Shown here in pieces: positions 753 to 27,842 of a stretch of 64,000 nucleotides of DNA. Below the pieces are notes generated by a model. That model did not search any database. It was not told where the DNA came from and saw nothing but the letters and a program-made list of their open reading frames with translations. Location of the stretch: positions 11,641 through 75,640 of the IMG/VR virus record IMGVR_UViG_3300005289_000004; one strand, written 5' to 3'. Every line of letters starts with the position of its first letter. Positions within the stretch are counted from its first letter, which is position 1. This stretch comes from a virus. Made by a program: the position numbers and the translations under genes.

Positions 753-814
753 TCTTTGCTTTTTATATAATCACAAAAGTAGGCAAATATAAAAGAGGTA
801 TTTTATGAGGCTCG

Positions 815-1489
815 CTACTTATTTATGCGAGGGTTCTTAATGAAGTACAATACTGCACCAACTATTGCAAGAACTGCAACAATTGCAATAACAGCCCACA
901 TCCCTTTAGAAGTAGGTTCTGATTTTTTATCCAATACTACGTGTTTGTCTTCTGATTTACCCTTACCTGCGCTATCTAATGTCAACTTATAATTACTGGA
1001 ATCTTTTTTAGAGGTGTCTATTTTACTGGACGTATTTGAATAATTCTTTTTAATCCTTAGTTCTTCAAAGGGTATATTCTGACTCTTACCGTTACTGGTA
1101 ATTTTAGCGGTTAGCTCGTTCCTTTTCTTGTCCTGATAGATTACTACGCTTACCCCATTGTTGTTTATGTCTACCAGTTTTAATGCTGTGTCTCCTTTTA
1201 AAGTAGAAGCTGTGTCTAATCTAAAGGTTGCTGTTAATTCGATAGGAGTTGGGTTAGGATTCCCTTTCCTGTACGTTATATCCTCACTTGTTACTGTTGA
1301 AGTGTTTTCACTGACGCCTTTGGCTTCTGTAACCTTCACATCATCGACAGTCTTTTTAACATCTGTGTTACTTTCAGTTTTGGTGTAGTCTGACAGTTTA
1401 TTCTTAGAAGTCGCTTTAAACAAACCGCAACTCCCGTATATAAAGATAACTGCTATTGATGCTAAGATTATTAGTAATGTGCGCTTCAT
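815..1489 (-). CDS. Lipoprotein with C-terminal TM helix, putative unimolecular spanin
   Basis: Signal peptide ending in a lipobox-like IYGSC; beta-rich middle; C-terminal hydrophobic helix MWAVIAIVAVLAIVGAVLYFI. Confidence 0.6.
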   Translation of the reverse strand: MKRTLLIILASIAVIFIYGSCGLFKATSKNKLSDYTKTESNTDVKKTVDDVKVTEAKGVSENTSTVTSEDITYRKGNPNPTPIELTATFRLDTASTLKGDTALKLVDINNNGVSVVIYQDKKRNELTAKITSNGKSQNIPFEELRIKKNYSNTSSKIDTSKKDSSNYKLTLDSAGKGKSEDKHVVLDKKSEPTSKGMWAVIAIVAVLAIVGAVLYFIKNPRINK

Positions 1490-1791
1490 TTCTTTGGGGT
1501 TATTGTAATAGTGCTATTTTTATTTTTAATGTCCAGTAAATCTTTTATCTCCTTATAACTTGCATCAGTTCTATTTACGATCACTGCTTGCAGACTGTCT
1601 TTTTCTTTTCTCTCTTTAACTATCATATTATCTCTAATATTAATTTGTGTTTTGAGATAGTCTATATCTTTTTTGACATCCTCTAACCTACTTTTGTTTA
1701 TGACCGCAACATATGACGCAATACTTGATATACATCCCATCATCCATAGGGCTACTTTTTTATAACTGTCGTTTGTATTTGTATTCGGCAT
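1486..1791 (-). CDS. Single-TM coiled-coil membrane protein (holin-like)
   Basis: N-terminal TM segment then coiled coil; overlaps the spanin-like gene by 4 nt. Confidence 0.45.
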   Translation of the reverse strand: MPNTNTNDSYKKVALWMMGCISSIASYVAVINKSRLEDVKKDIDYLKTQINIRDNMIVKERKEKDSLQAVIVNRTDASYKEIKDLLDIKNKNSTITITPKK

Positions 1792-1872
1792 TAAATATTT
1801 CCCCGTTTATTTGATGTCTTACAAAACTAGGAAAAATATGTCGTGCTATTATATAGTGGTGCAAACATCATG

Positions 1873-2148
1873 CTACTTCTTAGTACTCTTTCCGTCCTTG
1901 CCATTACGGCCTCTGTTGACCTTGCTACTCTCTAAAACGAGTTTTCCTGACTTAGTGTGCGACCGATCTTTTCCCATAGCAGTCATCTTTCCGTATGTTC
2001 CGGCTTTTCTATTAGCACGATTGGTTTCTGCCCTATTACGTTTCTGTTCTGGTTTTGCAGAGAACTTTGCATCGTAAGCTAATTTCTTTTTCCTTGCTTC
2101 TGGACTAAGCGTACTTTTTCCTTTTCCGGCTAGTTTGTTTCTTGGCAT
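1873..2148 (-). CDS. Small very basic protein, degenerate HNH-like
   Basis: K/R-rich; GKDRSHTKSGKLVLESSKVNRGRN resembles a minimal HNH-like D-x-x-H...N-R-x-R-N motif. Confidence 0.45.
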   Translation of the reverse strand: MPRNKLAGKGKSTLSPEARKKKLAYDAKFSAKPEQKRNRAETNRANRKAGTYGKMTAMGKDRSHTKSGKLVLESSKVNRGRNGKDGKSTKK

Positions 2149-2152
2149 ATCT

Positions 2153-5100
2153 TTATATTTTTATTTTTCTACGGAATTTAGATTTTGCAATAGCTGCTCC
2201 TCTTGAATAAGCTGATTTCAATCTAGGTATCATTCTTTCAGGGTCAGTTTTATCAGTATAGTTTTTAAGTATTCTTTCCACTAACTTTCTTCTTTCCTGT
2301 CCTACCATCTTAGTCAACTCTGACTTTTGCTCCTTATCTAACTTGACTTTAAAATCCTTTTTAGTGAAGGTGTCGTCTATTGAATTAGGTATAGCTCCGT
2401 CATCCCTTGTCTTACGTTGTATGTCAAACACCGCATAAGTAATAGGGTCTTGCAAAATCTTTTGACTCCTGAATATATCAATTATCTGGTACACGTAAGG
2501 ATTAGAACCATCTGGTGTTTGTTTAATAGGTTTACCCCACATATCATATTTAATAGGCAAGTCTTCAACATTACCGACCTTTTCTTTTATGATATTAGCA
2601 AATGTTTGTAACTGATCGTCTGTGTACAAATCTCTCATATAATCGTTAGAGGCTCTGAATGTCTGAGAAACTGTATTTGGAATCCCCATTGTAACAAAAG
2701 TCTTTCCTAGCTGGGGTATTATATTTTTAGCTCCATCAGGTGTAGAGACTGCACTTAGAATTGTTTCTGCCCCTTGTACGAATGATTGGTTAAAGAAGTA
2801 GCGCATAGCAGCAGGAGCATTTGTTGCAAAATTACCTATGAAATTAAGTGGATTTAAACCTGCTTCTGGGTAGTACGCTTCTCCTTTAGTGTTAACTACA
2901 TCTGCTTTCTTCTTTTGTTCCCTTAACTGTTCTCCTTTTGTTGAAGAAACTATACCTATCTGTGCGCCAATCAATCCTAGTGGTACATAAGATACTACTC
3001 TATCTCCTTGTTTATAAGCGAAATCTTCTCCATTTAACAACCTTTTAACTCCATCTACATTTATTGTGTTTGGCGGTTGGGTAGCAAACATAAAATCTTT
3101 TTGTTTCTTTTGAAACTTGTCTTCTGGTAAATCTCCTGTTGCTAGTCCATTGGCTACTAAGATTGTTGCTGCACCTAATACTGCTCCACTTACTATAGCT
3201 TGACCCATGTGTTCAGAGAAGTCTTTTTGATGCCTACGTATAAGAGTCTCTTTAAGCTTGCTATCTTTCATCTTATAAGCCTTGGTTAGCTGAGTAGCAT
3301 CATAAATAGCTTGACTAAAGGGTATGGCAGGAACAGCAAACTTAACTGTCTTTAATGCAATAGAGGACGGAGTATTTACAAATGGTAAGATACCTTTCAT
3401 TATGAACCTGTAACTGGCACTGGCAGTTGTGCCTCCTATTTCCTCTATTCGTTTAGCTCCGTCCCCGATTAAGCGGTTTATGTTACGGGATATTACGTTC
3501 TCCTCTTGGAAAGTAGCTTCTTTACCATAGTTTGTGGCTTCTTCTAAGGATTTGGCATCTGGTTTTAAAACAAATCGTTCTAGTGCATCTCCCTCTAAAC
3601 CCTTATCATTCTTACCGATCTCAACAAGTCTTTGTGTTTTAGCTTGCTCAAAGAATGGATCATCCCCAAAAGGAAGTAACCTGAACATTAAGTTAGCAGG
3701 AACACCAATAGTAGACTCTGTAAAATCTGATAATCCTTGTGACCATCCATACTGATTCTCCTCACGGGTAGCTGAACTTTTAAGGTTTTCAAACAACCTG
3801 TTAAATGCTACTCTGGGTTTTAATCTACCACCTACATCATATTTTGCCAGCTCTGCATTAGCAGTACCTCTGACAGCTTTACGTGTAGCCCTTTTAGAGC
3901 CTTGTACAACAGCTCTACTTCCTAACCTAATGTTATCCGCACTAAGGGTAGGAGACTTCGTTCTACGGCTTGTAATTAGCCCCACTAGGGCATCAACTGC
4001 TGTAGCTACATCGTTCTCTGTACCTCTTAAACCGAATTGCATTAAGTTGGCAAATGGGTTGATAACAACAGATTTAAAACTAAGTAGGTTTCCCTGTAGT
4101 ATTTTAGCTAAAGTGTCTGGTAAGTTCTTTCCTCTTATATTGTCAATGTAATCCTCTAAATCTCTGATTGCATCTTCGTAAGCTATTTCATTTGCATAGT
4201 AATCTTTGTAGTCAGCATCATCTAAAGTTTCAGTTACTTTATTTAATGCTTCCTCTACTCTTGCAGCCGCTTGCTGTTGATTAGCAAACAGTTCTTTTAT
4301 TTTAGTCTTTTGAGGTTCGGTTAGCTTCTTATTAACTTTATCTAACCACTTTTCAACAAGCTGTATGTATCCGTCTGGTGTAGATGATTTAAACTCTCCG
4401 TATTGACGTAATGTTTGTGCAGCAACTGTAGCAGACTTAGAGAGGGTTTCAATTATCTTACTTGCTTCGTCAAAGTTTCCTTCTGAATTGTACTTGTTAA
4501 TTAACTCAATACCTGCTAGCACACCAATATTTTGTTCGGATGTTAGTTGAGATGTTACAGCAGAAAGTTCTCCCACTAACCGTTGTTTCTCTAAATCGTC
4601 CATTGTAGACAACCTACTCCTTATTTCCGCATAATCCTGTGTTTGATAAAGCTGTTCTGTATTATCTAAAAGTTCTGCTGTCTCTGTAGGTGTTGTTTCA
4701 TCGGTTCTAACTCTTTCGCCAAATCCACGTACACCGTATCCTAACTGTTCTGCTGACTGTCTGTAAATATCCCGTAACTGTTCATCAGGAATAGTCTTAC
4801 CTAAGTCCTGTCTCATCCGATCTGCAAAGTCTTTAAAGCGTATTACTCCTTCTTCTACATACGTAACACCAAGTTCTACTAAATCTTTAATAGCATCCGG
4901 GTTTATTCCTGTATTTATGTTAGAGAGTTTATCACTTAGTCTTTTGGTTATCTCTGCTCGTCTGGCTTGTATTTCGGTTAGCTTCTGTTCTGTAACTGTA
5001 AGTCGCTGTTCTGGTACAATTATTTCAGACTCTATATTTGAAGTGTTTTTTGATCTTTCATACTCTTTAAACGATTCAACATCGGCCTCAGACCCCAACT

Positions 5101-7048
5101 CATGTATTTGCTCAGGATTAAATACCAACACCTCAGGGAACTTTAAGTCATCAGCATAATCTTTAGGGTCTAGTCCATTATCTTTAATTCTCTGCTCGTA
5201 AATTTCTGGTGTAGCGATTAAACCGTCATAACCCTGATCTTCATACTCCTTAACAAGCTCTTTACTTGTTTTACGTGTTATCTCGTTAGCATCAACATAT
5301 TTAGGGTTCTTCAAGTTAACGACAACAGATATTGTTTTACCATCTTCTGAGAAATGACCTTGTTTAGAGGATGTAAAGTACATTGTTCTACTCTTATCGA
5401 AGCTCTTTAAGTCAAAGTCTTTAGTAGTTTGGTGGTACATAACAGCATTAACCTTAGACTCAGGGAATATGTTCTGAACATACGTTTCATATTGTTTTTC
5501 ATCCCCAATAGTCTTTATCTCATCTTTACTCCCATAAACATCAGATACACCTGTTATAGGTTCAGTAGTTGTATTTTCTGCAACAGGTGTAATAATGGAG
5601 TCTAACTCTGCCTCAACTTGATTTAACTCTTCTTGTAAGGTAGTTTTAGTTACCTCAGATAAAGTTTTATCTTTAAGTATATCGGTTATAGCATCTGCAC
5701 GTTGTACAAGAATGTCTGTATCGGCTCTCTGCTCTGGGGTTAGTTTTTGCTCTGTTGTAACTGCCCCTTCAACTAAGTTAGATAACTCTTCTGTCTTTTG
5801 CTCTAATACGTCACTAACAGCATCGCTACCTGTTTTATCTAAGTCAGCTTTAAGTTCGTTGATTTCAGTGGTTAGCTGCTCTACTCTCTCACGCCCTTGT
5901 TTATTTTTAACTGAACCTAGTATATTTCCTGCACCTTGAATACCACTATCCATTACACCACCAACTATAATAGCATCAGCCACACCTTGCATCAAATCTA
6001 AGTCAGGATTTAAACCGCTATATTTATCAAGCATGTTTTGAGTGAACTGTGTAAGCCCCTCAGAAGCTCCACCTTTACCAAAAGCTACAGGAATACCGTT
6101 CTTAGCGAATATCTTTTTCAAATAACCTTCTGCAAACTCTGTTGCTTTACGTTTGGCTACGTCTATTCCATCCCTACCCAAGTCCCGTACAATATCATCT
6201 ATAATTGCTTTAGAGCCGAATGCTTGTTCAAACACAACTTCACTTAAACCGTTAAAAGCAGCAACGATTGGTTTTTGATAGTTCTTAATGTCAGGGTTGT
6301 CTTCAATCTCTGCTAATTTGTTTGAAGCAAATGGTAGCGCATTTAAAGCTGTTTTGCTGATCGTAGAGAGGTTTGCTGCTTGTCCTAGACCTGCTGTAGC
6401 ATATAGCTGTAGTAAAGACGGTACAGAGCCTGTAATAGCGTTAGCTACCTGTCTTCCTGCATCACCTAGTTTACCGTTCTTAATTGAGTTATAAATATCA
6501 CCTTCAAACTTAGTTACCTCTTTATTGTAAGCCTCTGACTCTCCCCTGTAATGTTGAGACACTTGGTCTAACAGTTTTAATGGGGTGCTTGCTTTTCCTG
6601 TTTCGTTTAACAGTTCTGCGTAGGAGGTAGATAGCGTATTCTTTAACTCCCCTTCTGGCAATTGGTCTGCTATAAAATTTTGAGGAATAGCTGCTAACTC
6701 GTAAACTATTTTTGGAATATCTGCAACACCTGCATAAGCCTTGTTAAGGGAAGATGCAAACGTGTTCCAAGTATCTGACCAAAAACCATCATCTTTTTTG
6801 GGGGCTGTTATAGCAACTTCTTCTAATTGCTTTGTTCCGTAAGTTGGTTCAGGTTCAACAGGTGCAGGTGGGGCGATCTTAGTTTCAAAATCTTCGTAAC
6901 TTCCTAGATCGTACTCTTTACCCACTCCATCATAAAATGCTTTACGTTTTGTTGAGTCTCCCATCTTACCAGAGAACTCTTCGTAACTGCCAACACTATA
7001 ATCTTTGGATACGGCTTCATACAGTAATTTTAATTTCTCCTCATCCAT
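2153..7048 (-). CDS. Large internal virion/ejection protein (polyvalent protein) with ADP-ribosyltransferase-like domain
   Basis: 1631 aa, last of three cargo-position genes; VMYHQT..MYFTS..NLKNP..GYDG..EVLVFNPEQI segment (~5070-5510) matches the ART-PolyVal pattern; largely helical elsewhere. Confidence 0.7.
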   Translation of the reverse strand: MDEEKLKLLYEAVSKDYSVGSYEEFSGKMGDSTKRKAFYDGVGKEYDLGSYEDFETKIAPPAPVEPEPTYGTKQLEEVAITAPKKDDGFWSDTWNTFASSLNKAYAGVADIPKIVYELAAIPQNFIADQLPEGELKNTLSTSYAELLNETGKASTPLKLLDQVSQHYRGESEAYNKEVTKFEGDIYNSIKNGKLGDAGRQVANAITGSVPSLLQLYATAGLGQAANLSTISKTALNALPFASNKLAEIEDNPDIKNYQKPIVAAFNGLSEVVFEQAFGSKAIIDDIVRDLGRDGIDVAKRKATEFAEGYLKKIFAKNGIPVAFGKGGASEGLTQFTQNMLDKYSGLNPDLDLMQGVADAIIVGGVMDSGIQGAGNILGSVKNKQGRERVEQLTTEINELKADLDKTGSDAVSDVLEQKTEELSNLVEGAVTTEQKLTPEQRADTDILVQRADAITDILKDKTLSEVTKTTLQEELNQVEAELDSIITPVAENTTTEPITGVSDVYGSKDEIKTIGDEKQYETYVQNIFPESKVNAVMYHQTTKDFDLKSFDKSRTMYFTSSKQGHFSEDGKTISVVVNLKNPKYVDANEITRKTSKELVKEYEDQGYDGLIATPEIYEQRIKDNGLDPKDYADDLKFPEVLVFNPEQIHELGSEADVESFKEYERSKNTSNIESEIIVPEQRLTVTEQKLTEIQARRAEITKRLSDKLSNINTGINPDAIKDLVELGVTYVEEGVIRFKDFADRMRQDLGKTIPDEQLRDIYRQSAEQLGYGVRGFGERVRTDETTPTETAELLDNTEQLYQTQDYAEIRSRLSTMDDLEKQRLVGELSAVTSQLTSEQNIGVLAGIELINKYNSEGNFDEASKIIETLSKSATVAAQTLRQYGEFKSSTPDGYIQLVEKWLDKVNKKLTEPQKTKIKELFANQQQAAARVEEALNKVTETLDDADYKDYYANEIAYEDAIRDLEDYIDNIRGKNLPDTLAKILQGNLLSFKSVVINPFANLMQFGLRGTENDVATAVDALVGLITSRRTKSPTLSADNIRLGSRAVVQGSKRATRKAVRGTANAELAKYDVGGRLKPRVAFNRLFENLKSSATREENQYGWSQGLSDFTESTIGVPANLMFRLLPFGDDPFFEQAKTQRLVEIGKNDKGLEGDALERFVLKPDAKSLEEATNYGKEATFQEENVISRNINRLIGDGAKRIEEIGGTTASASYRFIMKGILPFVNTPSSIALKTVKFAVPAIPFSQAIYDATQLTKAYKMKDSKLKETLIRRHQKDFSEHMGQAIVSGAVLGAATILVANGLATGDLPEDKFQKKQKDFMFATQPPNTINVDGVKRLLNGEDFAYKQGDRVVSYVPLGLIGAQIGIVSSTKGEQLREQKKKADVVNTKGEAYYPEAGLNPLNFIGNFATNAPAAMRYFFNQSFVQGAETILSAVSTPDGAKNIIPQLGKTFVTMGIPNTVSQTFRASNDYMRDLYTDDQLQTFANIIKEKVGNVEDLPIKYDMWGKPIKQTPDGSNPYVYQIIDIFRSQKILQDPITYAVFDIQRKTRDDGAIPNSIDDTFTKKDFKVKLDKEQKSELTKMVGQERRKLVERILKNYTDKTDPERMIPRLKSAYSRGAAIAKSKFRRKIKI

Positions 7049-7050
7049 CT

Positions 7051-8433: not shown

Positions 8434-8436
8434 AGT

Positions 8437-9063
8437 TTATGCGTAAAGTCCTTGTTGTCTGCCGTTAATTGGTGCAAACGGGTTGTATTGTAGTCCTGCT
8501 TGTCCTTGCGTTGATTGTTGTTGTCCTCCTAAACCACCTCCCATAGCAATTGCCGTTGCGCCACCGATGCCATTAAAGATATTTTGTACACCTGCATTTC
8601 TCATAGATGCCACTTGCTGTGCTGTCCTTAGGTACGGTTGTGCTTTATTCCAGTTCCAAACTCTTTGCTGTTCTTGAGCTAAAGTTTGATTCTGTTGCAT
8701 TGAAAGTATTTGATTCTGTCTACGTGCCTGTTCGTCCTGTATATTCAGATTTGTGGTGGCTTGGTTAGCTTGCCTAAGTAAACCAGCAACTGGTATATTT
8801 CTTCCTGAACGTGATGCCGAGGCCAGTATAGTAGAGAGGTTGTTCTGATTCTGTTGTAAGGCGTTATTATACTGAGTATTTGATAACCCAATTTGTGCCA
8901 TATTTCTAGCTTGTGCTGCGTTTTGAGCCAAAAGTGAGTTAACTTGTGCTACAGGTAATTGATTATTCCTTTCCAACGCGTTTGCCCTCGCCCCCTGAAA
9001 CAATCCGTATGCGGAGCCGAGTAGGTTTGCGCCAATTCCGAGTGCAGCTAAAGGTAATGCCAT
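8437..9063 (-). CDS. Small ejection (pilot-like) protein
   Basis: Q/N/A-rich coiled coil flanked by Gly/Ala hydrophobic helices, typical of podovirus ejected proteins. Confidence 0.65.
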   Translation of the reverse strand: MALPLAALGIGANLLGSAYGLFQGARANALERNNQLPVAQVNSLLAQNAAQARNMAQIGLSNTQYNNALQQNQNNLSTILASASRSGRNIPVAGLLRQANQATTNLNIQDEQARRQNQILSMQQNQTLAQEQQRVWNWNKAQPYLRTAQQVASMRNAGVQNIFNGIGGATAIAMGGGLGGQQQSTQGQAGLQYNPFAPINGRQQGLYA

Positions 9064-9124
9064 ATTCTATGTTTTAAAGTATAAGGCAAAGATAGGCTTT
9101 AAGTTAACTGTATTTTAAATAGGG

Positions 9125-9997
9125 TCACTCGTTGACCGTAGATACGTTTCCTTTTGTCACAATTTTAAATAACTGTAGAGCTTGCGAACCATCTATTGTT
9201 GTTAATTCCATGCTGAGGTAGCGACCTTTGAGTCTATCTCCGTCAACAAGTCCTGTTATCTTATCCCTCAGAAACTCTGCATAATGTATACCCTCTTTAC
9301 TGGTAAAATCTGCTTCTATTAAATCCGATACATGACCTAACTGAGTGGTAATACCGTCTGTTGTAGTTGCCATTATTATGTTGGAGTGGATAGCTACTGA
9401 ACTCCAAGTCTTAACGTAGCCTGAACCCATAGGAAACTTAACGGTTGTTTGAAACTGTTCTCCGTAGAAGTTGTTGTAGTTACTGTTGTTCTTGTGAATC
9501 CATAACTGACCGTTCTTCCAAGTAAACAAATCTGTGAACATGCTAAAACCGTTCTCTGGTCTGTAGCTTCTAAAGTCAACCCACCTGTTTCTGTCCTCAC
9601 TCCATATCACATTGAACTTACTGCCTGTGCTTACTTCTTCTCCTTCTTTCTGAATATTTAGCACCTCTATTTCGAGATAACCTGTTCCCCAGAATGTCAG
9701 TTTCTGGTTAGCTTCTGTTGTGGAGATTTCTACTGTTACATCTTGTACAGTTGTGTACGTAAACAAAGGTGTATCAAATCCTAAGCTAAGGCTTGGTGAG
9801 TTAGAAGCTGCTATAATTCTAAAACTTATAGTATAGTTGGTATCCTCATCAAAAGGATAAGTAAGCAGTTTTAACGGTGTATTGTTATTACACGGATAAT
9901 GAATAGCTTTAGTACCATTAAGCTCCCATGATCTGTCATTTAACAGTTCTTGAAAGTTTATAAGTACTGGTTGATCTTCTACAGTTTTAATATTCAT
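9125..9997 (-). CDS. C-terminal part of tail muzzle/stabilization protein
   Basis: WSEDRNRWVDFRSYRPE..LFTWKNGQLWIH..NNFYG..KEG..RD..GDRLKGRY resembles the C-terminus of crAss-like stabilization (P22 gp10-like) proteins. Confidence 0.6.
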   Translation of the reverse strand: MNIKTVEDQPVLINFQELLNDRSWELNGTKAIHYPCNNNTPLKLLTYPFDEDTNYTISFRIIAASNSPSLSLGFDTPLFTYTTVQDVTVEISTTEANQKLTFWGTGYLEIEVLNIQKEGEEVSTGSKFNVIWSEDRNRWVDFRSYRPENGFSMFTDLFTWKNGQLWIHKNNSNYNNFYGEQFQTTVKFPMGSGYVKTWSSVAIHSNIIMATTTDGITTQLGHVSDLIEADFTSKEGIHYAEFLRDKITGLVDGDRLKGRYLSMELTTIDGSQALQLFKIVTKGNVSTVNE

Positions 9998-11549: not shown

Positions 11550-11587
11550 AAACTTCGTTTTTTTTTACAAGGTGACCATCTTTAAAA

Positions 11588-16075: not shown

Positions 16076-16084
16076 AATTTAATT

Positions 16085-16696
16085 TTAAAGGTGTACACCG
16101 TCATTTGCACGGTCTGCTGGTAATAATGGTACAAGTAATCTGTAAGCTGCTTCAAAAGCCATATTTTCTACTTCACTTGGTAAGGTTAGGTCTGCATCGT
16201 CGTCAGCAGGTATACTGTACTTCTCTGTTACTAATACTTGAGCTTCTGTTACTTTCTTACCGATGAAGTACGCTTTGTTATTTTCTTTATAAAAATAGTT
16301 GATACAAGGCAAGCTAGTTTGCAGTTTATTAATGAACACTTCTTCTGTTCTTAACGGTATGTACATTGTAGCTACCCCTGATGCAGGGTTAACTGAGTTT
16401 ATGTCCAAGAACCTGTTACCTGCTATGCTAATTGATTTACCTGTAACCGTTACATACTGTAACCCTTTGGTTGCGTCTGTTGATACTGTAGCTAGATATG
16501 AGTAGGCTATACTATCATCTCCGTACTTGAAGTCTTCTAAATTACGCTGTGCAAAATAGCTGTCTCTCATTGCTTGAGCTATCCCTGCTACTACGTAACC
16601 TTTAAGTTCCCGATATGTAAAACGACTATCGTCGCCTAAATTTCCTCCATCAACTTTACGCCAAACGCGATAAACAATTTCTTTTATTGAGGACAT
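16085..16696 (-). CDS. Tail ring/tubular protein
   Basis: Likely start MSSIKE (16696); position in tail cluster, ~200 aa. Confidence 0.55.
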   Translation of the reverse strand: MSSIKEIVYRVWRKVDGGNLGDDSRFTYRELKGYVVAGIAQAMRDSYFAQRNLEDFKYGDDSIAYSYLATVSTDATKGLQYVTVTGKSISIAGNRFLDINSVNPASGVATMYIPLRTEEVFINKLQTSLPCINYFYKENNKAYFIGKKVTEAQVLVTEKYSIPADDDADLTLPSEVENMAFEAAYRLLVPLLPADRANDGVHL

Positions 16697-17592
16697 AACT
16701 CCTCCTTCCATATAAAACCGTACGAAAACTCTCTTTTGCCTGTTGTTGCCTTGCTTATGAACGAGGGGTCGAAGTTTAGTACCCTTCCTATTTCTGCTTT
16801 ATTTTTAAAACTACCTATTAAATTCATATCTTTATCATACTGATTAATTCTAATTTTAGCTAGCACAGGGCGTTCAAAACTTTCCCCCTTAAAACGCCAA
16901 ACATACCCTGAACAACCTTTAAATTTTCTTGCTGCACTTAAAATTTTCCAACTTCCCACACCTACACTTTGTGCTGCCTTCTCCGCACTTCTAAAACTTT
17001 GTACATAAACACCTTCTTGGGTGTATTGGTCAACAGCTTTATACCTGTATAGGTTTCCCTCCACAACTTTATCTATATACTCTTGAGATAATATTCTGCC
17101 TTTACGTTTTTCAGAAGCACGTTTATGAACTTCTGGGTCTCTTTTCTTCATAGCATCAGATATTTTAGCTTTAGTCTCAGGGGAAGCCTTTCTACCAATA
17201 GCTTTTTGTCTTAATTTTTCTTTTGTTTCTTCTGAGTGCTGTTTATTATTACCTGCTGGTTTTATATTGTATCCTATTTTTTTATCTAGTGACTTGTACT
17301 TTTCTACACAAGCTATTTCAATGGCATCTAGTAGCCCTATGTTAAATGTGCTATCTTTATGAGGTTTAAAGTACATCAACGCTTCTACTTTAAAATTATC
17401 AAACCCATATTTTCTAATAGCGTTACTAATGCTCATAGTAGGATTATTCTTAGAAGCAGTTTTATGAGTGTTTAATCGTTTTCTTAAATTTAAAGATTGT
17501 CCTATATATATCTTACCATTAGGTGCAGTTAGCTTATATACTCCGCAAACTCCAAAAGGTATATGACTTAATCTCTTATCAATCGGACTCAT
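16684..17592 (-). CDS. Free-standing GIY-YIG homing endonuclease with NUMOD3/NUMOD1 repeats
   Basis: GVYKL..GKIYIGQS..R; HSEETKEKLR (NUMOD3); VDQYTQEG..F.SA (NUMOD1); likely start MSPIDK just after the upstream stop. Confidence 0.9.
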   Translation of the reverse strand: MSPIDKRLSHIPFGVCGVYKLTAPNGKIYIGQSLNLRKRLNTHKTASKNNPTMSISNAIRKYGFDNFKVEALMYFKPHKDSTFNIGLLDAIEIACVEKYKSLDKKIGYNIKPAGNNKQHSEETKEKLRQKAIGRKASPETKAKISDAMKKRDPEVHKRASEKRKGRILSQEYIDKVVEGNLYRYKAVDQYTQEGVYVQSFRSAEKAAQSVGVGSWKILSAARKFKGCSGYVWRFKGESFERPVLAKIRINQYDKDMNLIGSFKNKAEIGRVLNFDPSFISKATTGKREFSYGFIWKEELCPQ

Positions 17593-17593
17593 A

Positions 17594-18241
17594 TTACTCT
17601 TGATTAATTTTATTATTAGCTGTCTGTAATTGTAAAACATCCCTCATCGACAACGAAGCCTTCTCTAAAATACGCGATGTCAACTCACTTTCTTCTGATT
17701 TATCCCATTGGTAGTAAGTAGAACCTGCATCATTATATACTGGTCTTCCTGATACTTCTGTGTAAGCGTATACCATAGGAGTAGGTCTTTCGTAGTATTC
17801 GACTGTTACTGCCAGTGAATCTTCTCCTAATAGGGTAAGCTCTTCGTAACCTTCTACATAATACTTATCTTCATCGTTAGGGCTTGCTAGTGGGTCTTCA
17901 AAGATTCTTGCTTGTCTGTCGTCATCTAAGGGTTTAACTGGTATTTTACCTGATGTAGTATAAACAGCCGATATGTAGGCACAGTTCTCTGGTTTGGTTA
18001 GCACCTCTCCTGAAAATGACAGATTAACTTTCTTTTTAAAGGGTAGCAGTCTTGTATCAACTAACCTGTTCTTACCAACTACAATTCTCGGATTAGTCTT
18101 TCTTCCTAAGAAGTCGTCAAACATCTCATTGGAAGCAATATTACCGTACCGTTCGTATTCTTTAGGGGCTACGTAAGCACCGCTATTTTTACTGAGCAGG
18201 TCTTTTAAGTATAAGTAGTTATCACCGGGTGAAATAGGCAT
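17594..18241 (-). CDS. Tail ring/tubular (head-tail adaptor) protein
   Basis: 215 aa, first gene after a late promoter; Y..RP motif typical of ring proteins. Confidence 0.55.
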   Translation of the reverse strand: MPISPGDNYLYLKDLLSKNSGAYVAPKEYERYGNIASNEMFDDFLGRKTNPRIVVGKNRLVDTRLLPFKKKVNLSFSGEVLTKPENCAYISAVYTTSGKIPVKPLDDDRQARIFEDPLASPNDEDKYYVEGYEELTLLGEDSLAVTVEYYERPTPMVYAYTEVSGRPVYNDAGSTYYQWDKSEESELTSRILEKASLSMRDVLQLQTANNKINQE

Positions 18242-18312
18242 GATCTGTTATTTTGTACAGTGGCAAATTTACGCCTTATCTACTAGGTATTTTACTGTAG
18301 CTTGTTAAACAT

Positions 18313-18339
18313 AAAAAGCCGAAGGGGTTAGCTCCGGCT
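18313..18339 (-). terminator. Rho-independent terminator
   Basis: AGCCG...CGGCT stem followed by a T-run on the minus strand. Confidence 0.6.
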
Positions 18340-18403
18340 AGTTGGACAAAGAGAGAAAAGAAGGTCGTTCAAGTTTTCTTAAAGGGTGTCCCCCAGAAAA
18401 TAG

Positions 18404-19336: not shown

Positions 19337-19396
19337 AACGCTTTGCTTTTCGTCCTAAGCGGACTTAATTTTATATTTTCTTCTCTTTTTAAATTA

Positions 19397-19429
19397 AATA
19401 GGGGAGAGCGATTAACCCTCCCCTTTATT
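19397..19429 (-). terminator. Terminator after major capsid gene
   Basis: Inverted repeat AGGGGAG/CTCCCCT right after the MCP stop. Confidence 0.65.
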
Positions 19430-19439
19430 GTGTAATTGC

Positions 19440-20795: not shown

Positions 20796-20815
20796 AATTC
20801 TTTAAGTTTTGTTTT

Positions 20816-21895
20816 TTAACGTTTTAACATGAAATTTTCAAAGTCATTATCTGACGAGTGGGCTGATGGAGTGTGATTCCTAGCTTCCTCTGAATAGTTA
20901 ACAACTTTATTTTTAATCAAATCCTCCCTTGCTTTCGCAGCCGCTTCTTTCGCAATAGTCTTGTATATCTTTTTTCTCAGTAACTCTTCGGATTTTTCTT
21001 GTACAAACCTCTGTACGTCTACTCCTGTTGTGTTACCCTCTCCATCCTTAATGAAGTATTTCTCATCACTAGGTTGGCTAATATAGTCTGACAACTGTCC
21101 AAGAACCTCTGTTTTCTCTTGCTCGGAAAGTTTGTAGTTAACGTTTAAAACAACCTCGTTTTCGCCATCAACGTACTTAACCTCTTCCTTAATTGAATCT
21201 ACAGATGTAAATGCCTCTTTAAGTTGGGGAATCCATTGTTCTTCTTTTTGTTTTTGAGCTTGCTCTGTTAACTGTTGGGTATACTGTTGTAGTATTTCCT
21301 CTGGTTTAGCTTGCTCTTGTGAGCCTTCATCTTCAAACTGATATTCAAACTTCGGTAATTCTAGGTCTGTATACTGAGAAGACAAATAACTCACTGCTTC
21401 CTTACCGTCTTTTTTAAGTGATCGGATAGATGCGTCAATTTTCTTGTTGTGTAGCTTGGCTTCTTTAATTTCATCATCGGTCATACTGTCCTGATCGATT
21501 TCTATCTTTTGAAGTCCCACTGCATATTTATCTTGTAGCTCTGCTTCTACATCAGATGAGTCCCATTCAGGATTATCTTTTTGTAGCTTAATTCGCAAAG
21601 CATCTTCGTTACTCAAAGAACTGTAGTCTTTTCCTTTTTCGGTTAGGACTTTTAATACTGTATCCTGATTAGTCTTTAGAAATTCGTAAATGTCAATCTC
21701 TACTTTCTTAGGTTCAGGTGTAGTTACAGGTTCAGGTTCAACAACTGGTTCTGCAACTGGTTCTGCAACTGGTACTACGGGTTCAGGCACTATCGGCTCT
21801 TCTGGCGTAATAGCTGGTTCAGGTGCAATTACAGGTTCTTCTTTACCTGCCATCTTATCCAATTCACTCATTCTAAAATCTTGTACTTCACTCAT
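20816..21895 (-). CDS. Putative scaffold protein
   Basis: Acidic, P/E/V-rich N-terminus, helical, between portal and MCP. Confidence 0.65.
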   Translation of the reverse strand: MSEVQDFRMSELDKMAGKEEPVIAPEPAITPEEPIVPEPVVPVAEPVAEPVVEPEPVTTPEPKKVEIDIYEFLKTNQDTVLKVLTEKGKDYSSLSNEDALRIKLQKDNPEWDSSDVEAELQDKYAVGLQKIEIDQDSMTDDEIKEAKLHNKKIDASIRSLKKDGKEAVSYLSSQYTDLELPKFEYQFEDEGSQEQAKPEEILQQYTQQLTEQAQKQKEEQWIPQLKEAFTSVDSIKEEVKYVDGENEVVLNVNYKLSEQEKTEVLGQLSDYISQPSDEKYFIKDGEGNTTGVDVQRFVQEKSEELLRKKIYKTIAKEAAAKAREDLIKNKVVNYSEEARNHTPSAHSSDNDFENFMLKR

Positions 21896-21957
21896 ATAAT
21901 TTCTTCTTTTCTTCCGTTTACAAAGCTACAACGCTTGTTTGGCATTTTTTACGTATG

Positions 21958-24402
21958 CTAAGCGAGTCCGTTTTGTTGGGCTATACTTAGTGCCTCCTCC
22001 TCGGTCATCTCTCCACTATCTACTGCTGCCTGTAACTCTTGTCCCATTTGTTGTTGAGCTTGTTGCTGTTCTAACTGCTGTTGTTCTTGTTCTGCTTGCT
22101 GAGAACTGCTACTTGTCTTGACTGCTGCATTTTGAAGTGCCAGTGAAACTAACGGCTCGTACATTGGTGGAATTGGCGTGCCTGTTTTAAATGATTCGGT
22201 TATCATGTCCATAGCTCCTTTTAACAATACCTGTATTTGGTCGTTATCTCCTTTGGCTTTTTCTTTCGCTTGTTCGTACTGTAGTTGGAGTTGAATGTTC
22301 TGTCCTCTGGCTTGTTCAGTTGCTTGGGCTGCTTGTGCGTTATATTCAGCAGCACTTCTCTGGGCTACGTCTGCATCTGCTACACGTTCTTTACGTCTTT
22401 TCTCAGTCAGGTAACTAAGCATTCTTTCAGCTAGCGCATATCCTGCATCCATTGTACGTCTTATACGCATTACGTCTTCCATGTATAGAGTTCCTGATGC
22501 TAAGGCTCTTTCTATGTTCTGTTCAAGATAAGCCCTTTCATCTGAACTGATGCCTAACTCATATTTAAAATCGTAAATAGACTGTACTACTTCATCTTTA
22601 GCTTGGATAAGTTTAGCATTCTTTTCTCCTAGCAGTTTTAAGTACCCTTTATTTGGATTACCGTATTTTAAAGCATCCCATATTCTAATACCCATTTGTC
22701 GGGTTAGCTTGGTTGTTGCTTTAACGTAAGCCATGTAATTAGACACCGTTGCTGTATTTGATGCTTGTGCTTGTGACTGAGCGAACTTAAAACCAATTCT
22801 GGCTGCTGATGCTGAACCATCCCTAAACTCATTAATACCTAAAGTCTCCCTTACATTTTGTTGGGCTAGGTTATAAGCTACAATAAATCCGTTTATACTT
22901 GCACCGATGTCAACTGCTTCATTAACTACAGGGGGTTTGTAATCTATGTTACCTTCTTCATCTTTACTGTTGTAATAAAGATCACCTGTTTGTCTTCGGA
23001 TGGTTAGCACTTCTATCGGTTCTATCTCTCCATCTCCCAAGTCAATGTTCATCAAAGAGCGTATGTCAATAGAAAGTCCCGGAGGCGGTGTCTTGGCAAT
23101 TACCTGTTTTATCTTTAACCAGTTCAAATCCATGATCTGAAAGTAATCCTTGACGTTCTCTATAGGACTAGGACTTAGCATACCTCCATGATTATCTACC
23201 ATGTGGAATATGAAAGGACAGATCAACTCTTGCTTGTAATTACCATCTCTTAACTGGTTAGTTTGTTCAGCCCATTCAAGACAATAACAACCGCCACCCA
23301 AGAAATAACCTTCGTATGCTGTAAGTGGATAAACTCTTCCTGTATTCTTTCTGCCATCTGAGGATTTTCCTGTTGGGGTTAGCTTATCTGATACGTCAAA
23401 CACTGATCTACCATATCTATCTTTACCCTCTGTGTATTCTAACACTTGGTTACAAGACCACCAGACGTGCAATACCTCAACCATGAAGTTATCATACGGT
23501 CTTACGTCCCTAAACCGATAATCTTCTGTCCATCTTGGAAGTGAAGCGTTACCAAACCTACCTGCAAACTTTTTAAGATAACCATGTAGTTCTTTCTCGT
23601 CTAATCCTTTAAGTGCAAACCTAGCTCTAAGTTTAGCTAGTGGCATTCTTATTAACCGTCCTGCATAACCGCCCTCTGGTATCTCACTGAAATCATCTGT
23701 AAAACAGTTTGAATAAATACAGTCTTCTCCTTGGATGTAGTCTACAACTTCCCGACCGTTATTGTCTATGTATTCGTAAAGACCAAACAGATTGACTTGA
23801 AACTGATCGGTTAGGATTCTACGTTTAAGTTTTTCAATGTCTATGTCGTTAAAAGCAAAGGTTAAGGTTTCCTGTAGAAGTAACTCTTCTTTCTCTTTGT
23901 CGTTAATATCGTAGTACAGTTCTAAATCTTCCTTAGATTCTGGGGTATATTCTGATGGGTCTGTAAGAGGAACACCTGCTTCTTGTGATAGTTCACCTAA
24001 CACCCCGCCGTACTCCATCCTAAATTGAGCGTCTGATTTACGTTTTTCTTTTCGTTCTTGTATGTGTGCTGATAATGCAGTTACTCTTGGGAACTCCTGT
24101 CTTGATTCCATGTAGCCGTCTACTACAATCTTTTCAAATTTCTTAGCGTATGCTCCCGGTTTAATCGATATATTTGTATAGGTTGACTTACCATCAATTT
24201 CCACCATATCCAAGATAGGCTTCATATCCTGCTTTCCCTCAGCGTAAGCCCTGTTGCTTGAAAATATCTTATTACGCTTTTCCCGGTAATCGTATGTGGA
24301 TGCTAATATTGCCTTTGCTACAGAAGTACCAAATGCTTTGGTATCTTTATCTACCTTTGCCGACAATGGATTAGGAAAGTTGTCATTTATAATTAACTGC
24401 AT
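21958..24402 (-). CDS. Portal protein
   Basis: 814 aa directly after terminase; LGINEFRDG and Q-rich coiled-coil tail typical of podovirus portals. Confidence 0.8.
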   Translation of the reverse strand: MQLIINDNFPNPLSAKVDKDTKAFGTSVAKAILASTYDYREKRNKIFSSNRAYAEGKQDMKPILDMVEIDGKSTYTNISIKPGAYAKKFEKIVVDGYMESRQEFPRVTALSAHIQERKEKRKSDAQFRMEYGGVLGELSQEAGVPLTDPSEYTPESKEDLELYYDINDKEKEELLLQETLTFAFNDIDIEKLKRRILTDQFQVNLFGLYEYIDNNGREVVDYIQGEDCIYSNCFTDDFSEIPEGGYAGRLIRMPLAKLRARFALKGLDEKELHGYLKKFAGRFGNASLPRWTEDYRFRDVRPYDNFMVEVLHVWWSCNQVLEYTEGKDRYGRSVFDVSDKLTPTGKSSDGRKNTGRVYPLTAYEGYFLGGGCYCLEWAEQTNQLRDGNYKQELICPFIFHMVDNHGGMLSPSPIENVKDYFQIMDLNWLKIKQVIAKTPPPGLSIDIRSLMNIDLGDGEIEPIEVLTIRRQTGDLYYNSKDEEGNIDYKPPVVNEAVDIGASINGFIVAYNLAQQNVRETLGINEFRDGSASAARIGFKFAQSQAQASNTATVSNYMAYVKATTKLTRQMGIRIWDALKYGNPNKGYLKLLGEKNAKLIQAKDEVVQSIYDFKYELGISSDERAYLEQNIERALASGTLYMEDVMRIRRTMDAGYALAERMLSYLTEKRRKERVADADVAQRSAAEYNAQAAQATEQARGQNIQLQLQYEQAKEKAKGDNDQIQVLLKGAMDMITESFKTGTPIPPMYEPLVSLALQNAAVKTSSSSQQAEQEQQQLEQQQAQQQMGQELQAAVDSGEMTEEEALSIAQQNGLA

Positions 24403-24473
24403 GTTATCGATTTATGTTTGCAAAATTAGTTTAAATACTTGTGGTGTTTTGCTTAGGCTGAGAACTGTTACTT

Positions 24474-26528
24474 TTAGCGATAAGTTGTTATACGACCATG
24501 TTTGACAAATTTCTTTCCTTTTGGCTTATCTTTGACTTGTTTTAGGGGTTCTTTGATTGTTATGAGAGAATTTCCGTCACTTATGGCGGTATCATAATCG
24601 GTTCGGTCATTTACATCGAAGTCTAAACGGTCTTTAATTAGGCGTTTAAAGAATATTTTTTCCACATCATTGTAAGAACTCTCTACCATTTCTGTAAGAT
24701 GTTCTTCTATGTACTCTTTGTTTTGTGGGGCTGCACCATACACCCAAGTCCCATCTGATCTTTGAGTTCCAAGTAAAAACTGTTCGTACCCATTTTCCTT
24801 AGCCCAATCAACCCAGTCAGTTGGCGAACGTTCTCCGAGCATTCTAACACCGTAAAACTTTAACCCCCAGTAGGTTTGCTTATGAAAATCTGGCTTATTA
24901 TCCATACGACCAAGAAACATAGCTACAGGGCATCCGCTTTTTTCAGGGTCAATAATAGTGTACCTTCTTCTTATCATTATTGAGGCATCACTGCCCTTTT
25001 CTACAGTAGCATCGCTGTGTGCTATAGCATCAAGACCAGCACCGCCATAAGCAGTTCCTGTAGGTTTATACTTAGGTTTACCACCAATCTCACTTTTTTC
25101 AAACTGGTTAGGTTTATCGGGGAATTGTAGTATGTACCACAACCCTTTGGGGTCGTCTTCAAAAAATACAGTGCCATCAAACTTCTCCCTAAACCAACCT
25201 CTTCTTCCAAGTTCATCTTTTTCAGGGTCTTTACCTTCGGCTACCAATTGATCTTTTATAACTTGTAATTGTGCTTCATGCCTTTTCCTGTCGAAGTGTA
25301 TCTTCTTATTGGCACTCTCAAATACTTCTTTATCGTTCCAAGGATTCTGTCTTATCTCCTCTTCTAAGGCTTCAAGATCATTCTCCAATGCCTTTCTTGT
25401 ATTAGCTTGATACTGTTTAGCACCTATAGTTGGGTCGAGGCAACCAATGGTTTCAAGATATTTTGTCTGTTCAGGTGTTGGTGTGTCCCACACAGATTCC
25501 CCAAATGCGCCAATCCAACCGTCATACCCGAAATAAGCGGGCAACATTATACGATAAAGTCCTGTTTTTGTTTCCCCTAAGTAGTTAGCTTTAGATTGAT
25601 CGCTTGACTGCCACGTAATTTGATACTCAGCTCCACCAGATTTTTTATCATTCACAGTGGTAGGCATAAATATCTTTCCAGTTATTCTAGCCCCTTTCTT
25701 GACGCACTTTGCAGCAATTGATAAGTATTTGTTGATCGGAGTTTCAGTTGGGAACTTACCCCCTTCATCGATAAGTAAGTAAGCAAGAGCATATCCATCA
25801 TAAGAGTTAAGGTCTGTATTTTCCCAAGATAGTTCATTATTAAGACCCTCCCCTTTAGTGGCAGACTTTTTTGTTTTAGTTATTCTGTCTGCTTGCTTCT
25901 TTAAAGAGAGAACCTGTTTTGGTGCAGTGTTACCCTCTTGTATGGGTTTTAAAAACTCCGGTAAATTTCCCAAAGCCTTAACAGCATATTGAAAAGCCTT
26001 ACCAGCATCCTTTCCCTTTTTAGATACAATACCTAAGTTAGCGTTTCTTAGGGTTAGCATCTTTAATAGTAAGGCAGACATAATCATTGAGGTAGCCCCC
26101 AACCTACGGGCTTTTAGTAACGTATGCCCCAGACAAGTCTTTGTATTATCACATATTTCTAAAAACCTGTAATAGTAAAGGGACGTGTCTCTATATTCTG
26201 GGTACACTCCTTCGGGTAATAAAAACCAGTTGAGGAAAAAGTAAAAATAGCTGTTTATGTAGGTTGGTTCTCCGTTTACATATAACCACATTCCTGAGTT
26301 TAGTCTCTCTACCTCTTCTACCAAATAATTTACTTGATCGGGATTATCATTTAACCTATCTTCCCAACCGCCTGACCAATCAAACTTCTCGTAATCAACT
26401 ACCCTTGACCATTTCTGTTTTGACTTAGGTATCCCATAGCCTCTAATATCTTTAAGAGGCGGTCTTTTAGGGAACTCGTATTTTAACCCTTCTACATAAT
26501 ATTCTCCATCTACCCAGATTCCTAACAT
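24474..26528 (-). CDS. terL: Terminase large subunit
   Basis: LKARRLGAT Walker A region, LLIDEGGK Walker B, C-terminal RNase H-like acidic residues (GLDA..SDAS..DTAISD). Confidence 0.9.
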   Translation of the reverse strand: MLGIWVDGEYYVEGLKYEFPKRPPLKDIRGYGIPKSKQKWSRVVDYEKFDWSGGWEDRLNDNPDQVNYLVEEVERLNSGMWLYVNGEPTYINSYFYFFLNWFLLPEGVYPEYRDTSLYYYRFLEICDNTKTCLGHTLLKARRLGATSMIMSALLLKMLTLRNANLGIVSKKGKDAGKAFQYAVKALGNLPEFLKPIQEGNTAPKQVLSLKKQADRITKTKKSATKGEGLNNELSWENTDLNSYDGYALAYLLIDEGGKFPTETPINKYLSIAAKCVKKGARITGKIFMPTTVNDKKSGGAEYQITWQSSDQSKANYLGETKTGLYRIMLPAYFGYDGWIGAFGESVWDTPTPEQTKYLETIGCLDPTIGAKQYQANTRKALENDLEALEEEIRQNPWNDKEVFESANKKIHFDRKRHEAQLQVIKDQLVAEGKDPEKDELGRRGWFREKFDGTVFFEDDPKGLWYILQFPDKPNQFEKSEIGGKPKYKPTGTAYGGAGLDAIAHSDATVEKGSDASIMIRRRYTIIDPEKSGCPVAMFLGRMDNKPDFHKQTYWGLKFYGVRMLGERSPTDWVDWAKENGYEQFLLGTQRSDGTWVYGAAPQNKEYIEEHLTEMVESSYNDVEKIFFKRLIKDRLDFDVNDRTDYDTAISDGNSLITIKEPLKQVKDKPKGKKFVKHGRITTYR

Positions 26529-26944
26529 TATATCTTACCCTCAAGTCTTTGCTTCTGTAACTGCTCAAACGGATTAGAGGTTGGGTCAATTTTTATTTGT
26601 GATTTTTTAGTTTCACCCTTTTTTGCAATATCAGGCCTGAGTGCCTCGGCCATATCCGATACTTTTTTAAATGAATCTATCTTCTCCACCAGCTTCATTA
26701 CACGGTCGAAGGTTTTATCTTGAGCATCGTTTGATAATATAGTCAACTTTTCTAACTCTCCGTTGGTAACATGATTAATATCGTCAGTTAGTTTTACAGA
26801 CAGCTCGTCAAGCGAAATCAATAGTTGTTTGATACTACTAGTTTCGAAATTTACGAGGTAGTTATGCAATTCATACAAGTAAAGGTTTATCTCTTCACTT
26901 TCAGACACTAGGTCTAATCTCAATTCAAATTTCTCTTCGTTCAT
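26528..26944 (-). CDS. Helical protein coupled to terL, possible terminase small subunit
   Basis: Stop overlaps terL start; likely start MNEEKF at 26944. Confidence 0.4.
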   Translation of the reverse strand: MNEEKFELRLDLVSESEEINLYLYELHNYLVNFETSSIKQLLISLDELSVKLTDDINHVTNGELEKLTILSNDAQDKTFDRVMKLVEKIDSFKKVSDMAEALRPDIAKKGETKKSQIKIDPTSNPFEQLQKQRLEGKI

Positions 26945-26949
26945 AATTT

Positions 26950-27762
26950 TTATATTCTTTTCCAAACATACCCCCAAGCCTTGAGTGGCTCTTTGTCTTT
27001 CCTAAATTTGTCTATAACATCATCTAAATAGCACACTCCATGTTTACCCTTACCAAAATATCTACATGCTTCTATTTTAGATGGGAAAGTTTTATACAGC
27101 TCACCTGTTAAATCGTAACATGCTATCTCTACACAATCTGGATGATTATTAAAAGTTTTTGCTTTCTGCTTTAATAGAATATCCTCCCGCTCTTTTTTCC
27201 AGTTGTGTGGTTCTCTGCTGAAAAATAAGTGTTTCCACCCTCTGGCTTCTCCCCTTAGAGTTCCGCTTACTCTGGCTTGGTTAGCGCCTAACATACGCCT
27301 AACTTCGCAAGCACTTTCAAACTCCCCCAAGATTTGATCTGTATTCATATCTATTGCATATATCAAACCTCGAAATTTATGGTTGTCTTTACCCCAATTA
27401 GCTGGCCCTCTCCTTCCACCTAAACATAAGTTATAGTTAAAATCTGCGTCTACCCACGCTTGATCTACCATATTTTCCTCCGCTAAGTAGGCTTCATCTT
27501 CGGTATCAAATAATTGTAGGTTTTCTCTTTTAAAATTTTTATAACCGTATTTAAGGACAGCATTTATAAAACAGGTTTTACCTTTTCTTTCTATAATTCT
27601 AACTTTTTCTCTTATAGCATCTGCGTCTGAGGTTACTCCATCTCCAATATACTTGTCGTGTAATTTGTTTGAAGCATGTACTCCTACGTAAATTTTTCCG
27701 TTGATTAAATTTGTCGTTTTATAAAGTATGTTATATTTCTTATCTTGTTTTGATGCCCCCAT
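26950..27762 (-). CDS. Free-standing GIY-YIG homing endonuclease (NUMOD1 repeats)
   Basis: ILYKTTNLINGKIYVGVH; YNLCLGG; C-terminal NUMOD1-like repeats. Confidence 0.88.
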   Translation of the reverse strand: MGASKQDKKYNILYKTTNLINGKIYVGVHASNKLHDKYIGDGVTSDADAIREKVRIIERKGKTCFINAVLKYGYKNFKRENLQLFDTEDEAYLAEENMVDQAWVDADFNYNLCLGGRRGPANWGKDNHKFRGLIYAIDMNTDQILGEFESACEVRRMLGANQARVSGTLRGEARGWKHLFFSREPHNWKKEREDILLKQKAKTFNNHPDCVEIACYDLTGELYKTFPSKIEACRYFGKGKHGVCYLDDVIDKFRKDKEPLKAWGYVWKRI

Positions 27763-27842
27763 ATAAATAAAAATGCACACTAGTGGTTTAAACTGTGTGC
27801 AAATATAATCAATAAAGGGGGTAGTATTTTACTAGGCTATCA

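Follow-up and report, generated by a model that had tools for sequence, protein, structure and literature searches.

A bipartite upstream box at fixed spacing marks a predicted phage-private promoter class ahead of late operons in an uncultured Bacteroidota phage

At the middle promoters of phage T4 a MotA box at -30 accompanies the sigma-70 -10 element, and the activator MotA acts with AsiA in what is termed 'sigma appropriation'. Mu middle and late promoters (Mor, C) and P2/P4 late promoters (Ogr, Delta) have a poor or absent upstream element and are served by a small phage DNA-binding activator made earlier. To our knowledge, there has been hardly any study, beyond a single crAss-like model, of when Bacteroidota phages express their genes. 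In the crAss-like phage phi14:2, early genes are transcribed by a virion RNA polymerase, and middle and late genes by the host RNA polymerase from extended tripartite promoters, with a motif common to related phages (bioRxiv 10.1101/2020.03.07.982082). The canonical Bacteroidota sigma-ABfr promoter combines TTTG at -33 with TAnnTTTG at -7 (PMC6847099). The two elements are some 19-20 nt apart, and transcripts begin 4-5 nt past the -7 element. Here we analyse a stretch of 64,000 nucleotides (nt), hereafter the window, which covers bases 11641-75640 of the virus record IMGVR_UViG_3300005289_000004 (75,640 bp, 37% G+C, with a 129-bp terminal repeat), and describe a bipartite box that stands upstream of TAnnTTTG at a fixed distance, in place of the host -33 element, ahead of packaging, head, tail and lysis operons. 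Positions within the box are counted from the first base of the -7 box unless given relative to the transcript start. We found no published description of this motif in the literature, and the phi38:1 transcriptome paper makes no mention of promoters.

A sequence-only reading of the window had proposed that six minus-strand -7 boxes are preceded by A(G/C)C..AAAATAC with the first A exactly 31 nt upstream, and that a weaker seventh site exists. The register holds at six of six sites when counted to the T of TAnnTTTG, and the weaker site (1822-1860) is in register too. The A(C/G)C part of the proposed box is indeed fixed at -31, but AAAATAC slides by 1 nt between sites; what is conserved is A(C/G)C at -31..-29 together with AAA at -22..-20. 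Written as ASC-N6-AAA-N19-TAnnTTTG, this core was matched 8 times in the window, where 0.10 matches were expected and the highest of 100 dinucleotide shuffles reached 2, and 9 times in the whole genome, where 300 Markov simulations gave 0.07. When the N19 gap was varied from 12 to 27 across the whole genome, N19 gave 9 matches and each other spacing gave 0-1. A(C/G)C lies at -31 of 8/18 intergenic -7 boxes near a gene start as compared with 0/93 coding boxes. The AAAATAC string alone is not diagnostic; the genome holds 31 copies, and a -7 box follows only in the 4 that belong to box promoters. All nine full sites carry an exact TAnnTTTG, and at the seven with a gene directly downstream the start codon follows the -7 box by 19-26 nt (the 27800 site leads to a GTG start at 27780). 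None of the box-type sites appears in the list of TTG-N17-21-TAnnTTTG matches, which holds eight other intergenic sites. These counts and the spacing scan support a real promoter class whose box stands at a fixed distance, where the host would have its -33 TTTG.

The geometry of the box can be placed on the polymerase with a published transcript-start frame, in which the T of the -7 box lies at -12 (PMC6847099). In that frame the A-tract would take up about -35 to -31, the position otherwise held by the host -33 element, and ACC would fall at about -43. ACC lies one helical turn upstream of the A-tract. The consensus, ACCcT....AAAaTAC, has no inverted half-sites in a 22-site profile and thus no dyad symmetry. 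We also considered whether the box might contain an inverted -33 element (CAAA as the reverse of TTTG), and rejected this because at most sites T or A, not C, precedes the A-tract.

Conservation was examined in 36 related IMG/VR loci and five whole relatives, G001 to G005, whose large terminase subunits (TerL) are 52%, 44%, 42%, 40% and 40% identical, in that order, to that of the phage studied here (G000). The closest TerL relatives overall are 82% and 61% identical; the whole relatives compared here are G001-G005 (52-40%). A(C/G)C at exactly -31 is found at 6/13 intergenic -7 boxes vs 1/95 coding boxes in G001, and at 6/10 vs 0/39 in G002. All 22 aligned sites from G000, G001 and G002 have AA at -21/-20, while the stretches that separate the conserved blocks have diverged, and the genes behind the box are orthologous: a gene of 134-149 amino acids (aa) upstream of TerL, the 359-aa head gene, and the 215-aa, 208-aa and 101-aa genes. 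More distant relatives differ in the 5' half: G003 has GCTCAAAA, G005 has G(T)TAAAAAAA, another group has AGCAGCACAAAAATATC, and GTTAAAAAAA is also seen. AAA at -22..-20 is found in these more distant relatives at 32/65 late-strand intergenic boxes as against 16/433 coding boxes, and the frequency of A at -23..-19 in late-strand intergenic boxes of relatives is 0.57-0.78. As judged from these alignments, the A-tract is family-wide and the 5' half is clade-specific. The cultured Cellulophaga phage phi46:3 (TerL 27% identical) does not share the box, and has the A-tract in 1/4 of its late-strand boxes.

Could the sites be non-functional, arising by chance or as by-products of gene ends or of homing-endonuclease insertion? 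Three box sites do adjoin homing endonuclease genes, and boxes abut the stop codons of upstream genes. But none of the 100 shuffles reaches the observed count, the majority of sites are not near an endonuclease, and the sites persist in G001 and G002 without the endonucleases; we regard a non-functional origin as exceedingly improbable. A second way of denying the phage a promoter class of its own is that the phage has borrowed a host transcription factor's binding site and thereby ties its late genes to a signal from the host. The full pattern gave 255 matches in 61 Flavobacteriaceae genomes (1.6-5.4 Mb each) and 299 for a reversed-pattern control, and five further Bacteroidota genomes were also scanned. 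Its density is ~1.2 per Mb in the Flavobacteriaceae, assuming ~215 Mb in total, and ~119 per Mb in the phage. AAA-N19-TAnnTTTG alone showed no excess in the Flavobacteriaceae genomes either (1646 vs 1911 in the control). The strict version, AGCCT-N3-AAAATAC-N16-TAnnTTTG, occurs twice in this phage and as 29 single scattered matches in 596 Gbp of prokaryote genomes, and the five Bacteroidota genomes among those that match it carry no related TerL. Since the box is also non-palindromic and matches no known regulator site that we can name, a host-factor site seems very unlikely. The sequence-only view of the box as phage-specific is therefore borne out, in that it is confined to the phage lineage and unenriched in Flavobacteriaceae genomes, and we consider the box sites very probably to be a genuine second promoter class that is private to these phages. 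Table 1 lists the sites together with the host-type promoters and genes discussed below.

Table 1. Predicted promoters and selected genes of the phage (window coordinates, except where genome coordinates are indicated).
Feature	Position	Strand	Remarks
Box-type promoter (AGCCTAGTAAAATAC, 16 nt, TATATTTG)	27800..27838	-	before homing endonuclease, 149-aa putative small terminase and large terminase genes
Box-type promoter	24421..24459	-	before portal gene
Box-type promoter	21921..21959	-	before head-gene block (359, 451, 310 aa)
Box-type promoter	18264..18302	-	before 215-aa gene and tail/structural block
Box-type promoter	9087..9125	-	before 208-, 460- and 1631-aa virion genes
Weak box-type promoter (ACCACTATATAATAGC)	1822..1860	-	ACC at -31, TAA not AAA at -22..-20; before 101- and 224-aa genes
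Box-type promoter	774..812	-	before 81- and 275-aa genes and 1071-aa tail-fibre-like gene
Box-type promoter, ninth full site, outside window	genome 4867-4905		precedes endolysin; 5 nt before ORF start
Additional box-type promoter (ACCCTTAGTAAATAC)	47628..47666	-	before 152-aa wHTH/RepL-like gene 47144-47602
Additional box-type promoter (ACCCTGTTAAAATAG)	31491..31529	+	heads ORF-free leader of rightward operon, at strand switch
Box match AGCCTAGTCAAAATAT, one-mismatch -7 box CACCTTTG	55585..55623	-	just downstream of host-type promoter at 55632
Box match ACCCTATCTAAATTTAC, one-mismatch -7 box TATATTTA	60758..60796	-	before GIY-YIG homing endonuclease gene 59863-60750
Host-type promoter TTG-N20-TATATTTG	31392..31422	-	early leftward operon
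Host-type promoter TTG-N20-TACCTTTG	31527..31557	+	rightward operon (-7 at 31550)
Host-type promoter TTG-N20-TACATTTG	40147..40177	+	-7 at 40170
TTG-N19/20 promoter	34606	-	
TTG-N19/20 promoter	48579	+	
TTG-N19/20 promoter	55632	-	
TTG-N19/20 promoters, outside window	genome 6307, 3763		before HNH endonuclease, DNA-repair exonuclease
Large terminase TerL	24474-26528	-	PHROG 6681 match
Portal gene	21958-24402	-	PHROG 6547 match
p272 (272 aa), candidate regulator	29067..29885	-	third from last gene of early leftward operon; basic, pI 9.8

Several of these sites can be followed into the relatives one by one. The 27800 site has its ortholog at 54663-54701 in G001, immediately before the 149-aa gene; the 21921 site at 59755-59793 in G001 and 28388-28426 in G002; and the 9087 site at 69828-69866 in G001 and 17941-17979 in G002. 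The ortholog of the weak 1822-1860 site in G001 (4640-4678) is a full pattern match, and many relatives keep an in-register A-tract in the spacer between TerL and portal genes. Directly upstream of the 18264 promoter, after the 310-aa gene, lies a terminator-like hairpin (18317-18339, minus strand). A second strong hairpin of this kind (19400-19424, minus strand) follows the 451-aa gene, the likely major capsid gene.

It had been suggested that every site precedes virion, packaging or lysis genes, and this stands for the packaging, portal, head, tail and endolysin operons but not for two further full sites. One of them (47628-47666) serves a lone minus-strand gene within a plus-strand block, 47144-47602, which encodes a 152-aa winged helix-turn-helix (wHTH) protein with Pfam RepL (2e-6) and HTH matches and is specific to G000; with a full box promoter of its own, this gene may be late-expressed or autoregulated. 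The other (31491-31529) heads a leader free of open reading frames (ORFs) and stands in tandem with a host-type promoter, such that the end of its -7 box is that promoter's -33 TTTG. G001 has two box promoters at the equivalent spot, and because a box promoter also heads the rightward-operon leader, and does so in both phages, the class is not strictly late or structural. Some 540-700 nt without ORFs lie downstream of these strand-switch promoters (window 31530-32066, plus strand; G001 50920-51515, minus strand). The homing endonuclease genes at 26950-27780, 16684-17640 and 59863-60750 (all minus strand) lie in or beside late operons and all match PHROG 314; GIY-YIG PHROG matches were obtained for the second and third, and an HNH-type endonuclease gene (genome 5294-6271) is placed likewise. 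The first of them sits between its late promoter and the 149-aa and TerL genes, and is absent from G001 and G002.

The early and DNA-metabolism genes use TTG-N19/20-TAnnTTTG, in agreement with the suggestion that early and middle promoters retain TTG, and two predicted promoter classes therefore coexist in one genome. Two of the host-type promoters, at 31392 (minus strand) and 31550 (plus strand), belong to the divergent switch region. Three of the host-type promoters are themselves in tandem arrangements (31392-31427, minus strand; 31522-31557 and 40142-40177, plus strand), in which the TTTG that ends one TAnnTTTG doubles as the -33 element for another -7 box lying 20 nt further downstream.

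How might the box work? In the explanation toward which we lean, without great confidence, the host primary sigma would still read the -7 element TAnnTTTG, while the -33 TTTG is replaced by the A-tract (~-35 to -31 from the likely start) and A(C/G)C (~-43). A phage factor made from the early host-type promoters would bind the box and recruit or re-target the host RNA polymerase, thereby switching on the packaging, head, tail and lysis operons together with the leader RNA and the wHTH gene. That a phage factor acts with the host sigma-A RNA polymerase at a phage-private promoter class, with p272 as the best candidate for that factor, is the account that we judge slightly more likely than not, and we hold the narrower statement that box promoters need a phage factor to be about equally probable.

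A simpler possibility is that the host holoenzyme alone transcribes these promoters: the A-tract would stand in for an UP or -33 element and make the box a strong upstream variant, and timing would be set by other means such as genome entry, replication, or terminators and leaders. Several observations favour it and weigh against the need for a phage factor. In Flavobacterium johnsoniae, promoters frequently have no clear -33 element and contain AT-rich blocks (PMC6847099), so a -7 box with an A-tract might work unaided. The extended promoters of phi14:2 are transcribed by the E. coli sigma-70 holoenzyme alone in vitro. The early leftward operon, which runs from the host-type promoter at 31392, ends only 62 nt before the first box promoter (27800), with no terminator in the gap. 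Six-frame searches found no match at E<=1 to the sigma-70 domains PF04542, PF04545 and PF08281 (controls matched, though a very diverged sigma-like protein could escape), to AsiA (PF09010) or, over the whole genome, to the MotA C-terminal domain MotCF (PF09158). A generic AT-rich effect nevertheless explains poorly why ACC or AGC should sit at an invariant -31 in three diverged phages, why the 5' half should vary between phage clades, or why neither the full pattern nor the in-register AAA is enriched in host-family genomes. We consider unaided transcription by the host holoenzyme rather unlikely, if a serious competitor.

The same domain searches bear in the opposite direction on another reading, in which the switch is sigma appropriation or a cryptic phage sigma-like subunit: a small phage protein would remodel or replace host sigma region 4, and a second protein might read ACC. 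The A-tract coincides exactly with the place at which sigma region 4 would read TTTG, and it is family-wide as opposed to the clade-specific 5' half; the two-part layout of the box resembles the MotA/AsiA logic of T4, and the early operons encode many small proteins of unknown function. Set against this are the lack of Pfam matches to Sigma70 r2, r4 and r4_2, AsiA or MotCF in those searches, and the failure to find a conserved small candidate among the early proteins, as the 82-aa protein resembles an SSB and the 131-aa one gave an unusable model. We think this reading improbable. Nor did Pfam scans of 19 early and candidate proteins return Mor/C or Ogr/Delta, although no search was aimed at these families. 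A further possibility, which we put forward tentatively and think less likely than not, is a two-part system in which a family-wide component makes the polymerase accept the A-tract in place of the -33 TTTG, and a fast-evolving coiled-coil/MarR-like protein of the p272 family reads the clade-specific word at -43.

Returning to the phage factor that we favour, p272 is the best candidate reader of the clade-specific ACC half, although that p272 is in fact the factor is a doubtful proposition at this stage. Its operon encodes, in addition, an Acb2/Tad1-like protein, a small SSB-like protein, a GroES-like 227-aa protein and GroES. The sequence-only reading had named p272 as a wHTH candidate, and its AlphaFold2 model (predicted local distance difference test, pLDDT, 87) agrees: a 112-residue helix is followed by a C-terminal winged helix, with helices and a beta-hairpin wing at residues 159-265. 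With this domain, the top Foldseek matches in the PDB all belong to the MarR family (NadR, MarR, MhqR; E 6e-4 to 1e-2, target-normalised TM-score ~0.5). There was no Pfam sequence match, and PDB sequence searches with the 227-, 272- and 152-aa proteins gave nothing useful. A set of 1.84 billion proteins holds 38 representative relatives of p272, and its orthologues are syntenic in G001 and G002, both of which carry the box. A p272 profile returned nothing from IMG/VR and four short contigs from metagenomes, of which one was informative: on L092, the fourth p272-bearing contig, the first promoter downstream combines AGC at -31 with AA at -21/-20. Among the 65 late-strand boxes of relatives without a p272 match there is no peak at -31.

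A number of points speak against p272 in this role. Its co-occurrence with the box is confounded by relatedness, and its recognition helices differ among G000, G001 and G002 although the boxes are alike. The analogues of p272 in G003 and G004 are weakly alignable, and that in G003 is itself behind a box-type promoter. A basic coiled-coil wHTH protein encoded beside the terminase genes could serve packaging instead, and a box without dyad symmetry would be an unusual target for a dimeric MarR-type binder.

Other products of the early region fared less well as regulators. The HTH protein 33248-33847 (also delimited as 33191-33847), which had been named as the second candidate, has a weak HTH match and was down-weighted because it has no orthologue in the box-sharing G001 or G002. 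The 82-aa protein was rejected on account of its small SSB-like look, judged by eye, with a DLPF tail, and the 227-aa protein because it is GroES-like. The 131-aa early protein (34190-34585) is common to G000, G001 and G002, but has only 3 homologues, weak atlas leads and a model with a pLDDT of 56. Some of these proteins are of interest for other reasons. The acidic 82-aa protein (30461-30709, minus strand) ends in DLPF like an SSB tail, with orthologues ending in ELPF (G001) and SLPF (G002), and is possibly a mini-SSB or a decoy. Two GroES-like genes lie side by side on the minus strand, 27843-28169 (a 108-aa Cpn10) and 28179-28862 (227 aa), and the larger is next to the terminase genes across the family, including in phi46:3 (gp092). 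The 103-aa protein of the first early operon (30731-31042, minus strand) matches the Pfam Acb2/Tad1 hairpin domain PF24729 at 28.8 bits (cut-off 27), and is a candidate cyclic-nucleotide sponge against CBASS/Thoeris-type defence.

The phage, an uncultured one of Flavobacteria-type bacteria, is related to the Pachyviridae. Among cultured phages, those that come nearest are Pachyviridae of Cellulophaga (phi46:3 and others) and the Flavobacterium 'elemo' podophages, at ~27% TerL identity; still closer is a large uncultured family with genomes of ~70-80 kb and 223 TerL relatives at E<=1e-20. Several of these TerL relatives (P0043, P0048, P0053 and others) are ~1035 aa long with Hint/intein and LAGLIDADG domains (PF05203, PF05204, PF14528), and are, by their domain content, predicted intein-bearing terminases within the phage family. 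Megablast against phage records gave zero matches, a TerL profile scan of bacterial genomes found no prophage and no pointer to a host, no tRNA genes were found, and an Rfam scan of the window returned nothing.

For this large and mostly uncultured family, the motif allows late operons to be marked from sequence; it also tells apart two promoter classes in a single genome, and p272 gives a concrete candidate regulator to work with. If a phage factor is confirmed, the system would show how the atypical Bacteroidota sigma can be redirected, and Flavobacteriia genetics would gain an inducible promoter/activator pair that is orthogonal to the host. Should the two-part reading prove true, the phylum would have its first described late-gene switch that works by redirecting sigma, and with it a supply of orthogonal, switchable Bacteroidota promoters.

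Set beside the canonical sigma-ABfr promoter, the box-type promoter has an identical -7 element and similarly short leaders to the start codon, but lacks TTG at -33 and has instead the A-tract, plus A(C/G)C 31 nt upstream of the -7 box. It shares with phi14:2 a Bacteroidota phage setting and host-polymerase promoters with an extra conserved block, a comparison made by description and not by sequence; the two phages belong to different orders, and the phi14:2 promoters keep -35-like and -10-like blocks and are active with holoenzyme alone. With the late promoters of Mu and P2 it has in common a host-type downstream element, a poor or absent upstream one and a candidate activator encoded just upstream of the late region. 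The Mu and P2 sites, however, are dyad-symmetric and bound by Mor/C or zinc-finger proteins, whereas the present box lacks a dyad and its candidate activator is a coiled-coil/MarR-like wHTH protein. Another parallel in logic is T4 middle transcription, in which the host downstream element is likewise kept and the upstream one swapped for a phage-specific, non-palindromic box at fixed spacing, with expression here proposed to follow an early phase from host-type promoters. It differs from T4 in that the host sigma elements are TAnnTTTG/TTTG, the box is bipartite and reaches ~-43, the genes are mainly late, and no MotA or AsiA homologue was found. The architecture, a host downstream box joined to a private upstream box, is thus a classical one, as in T4 middle and Mu late promoters, and is one not yet described for this phage group.

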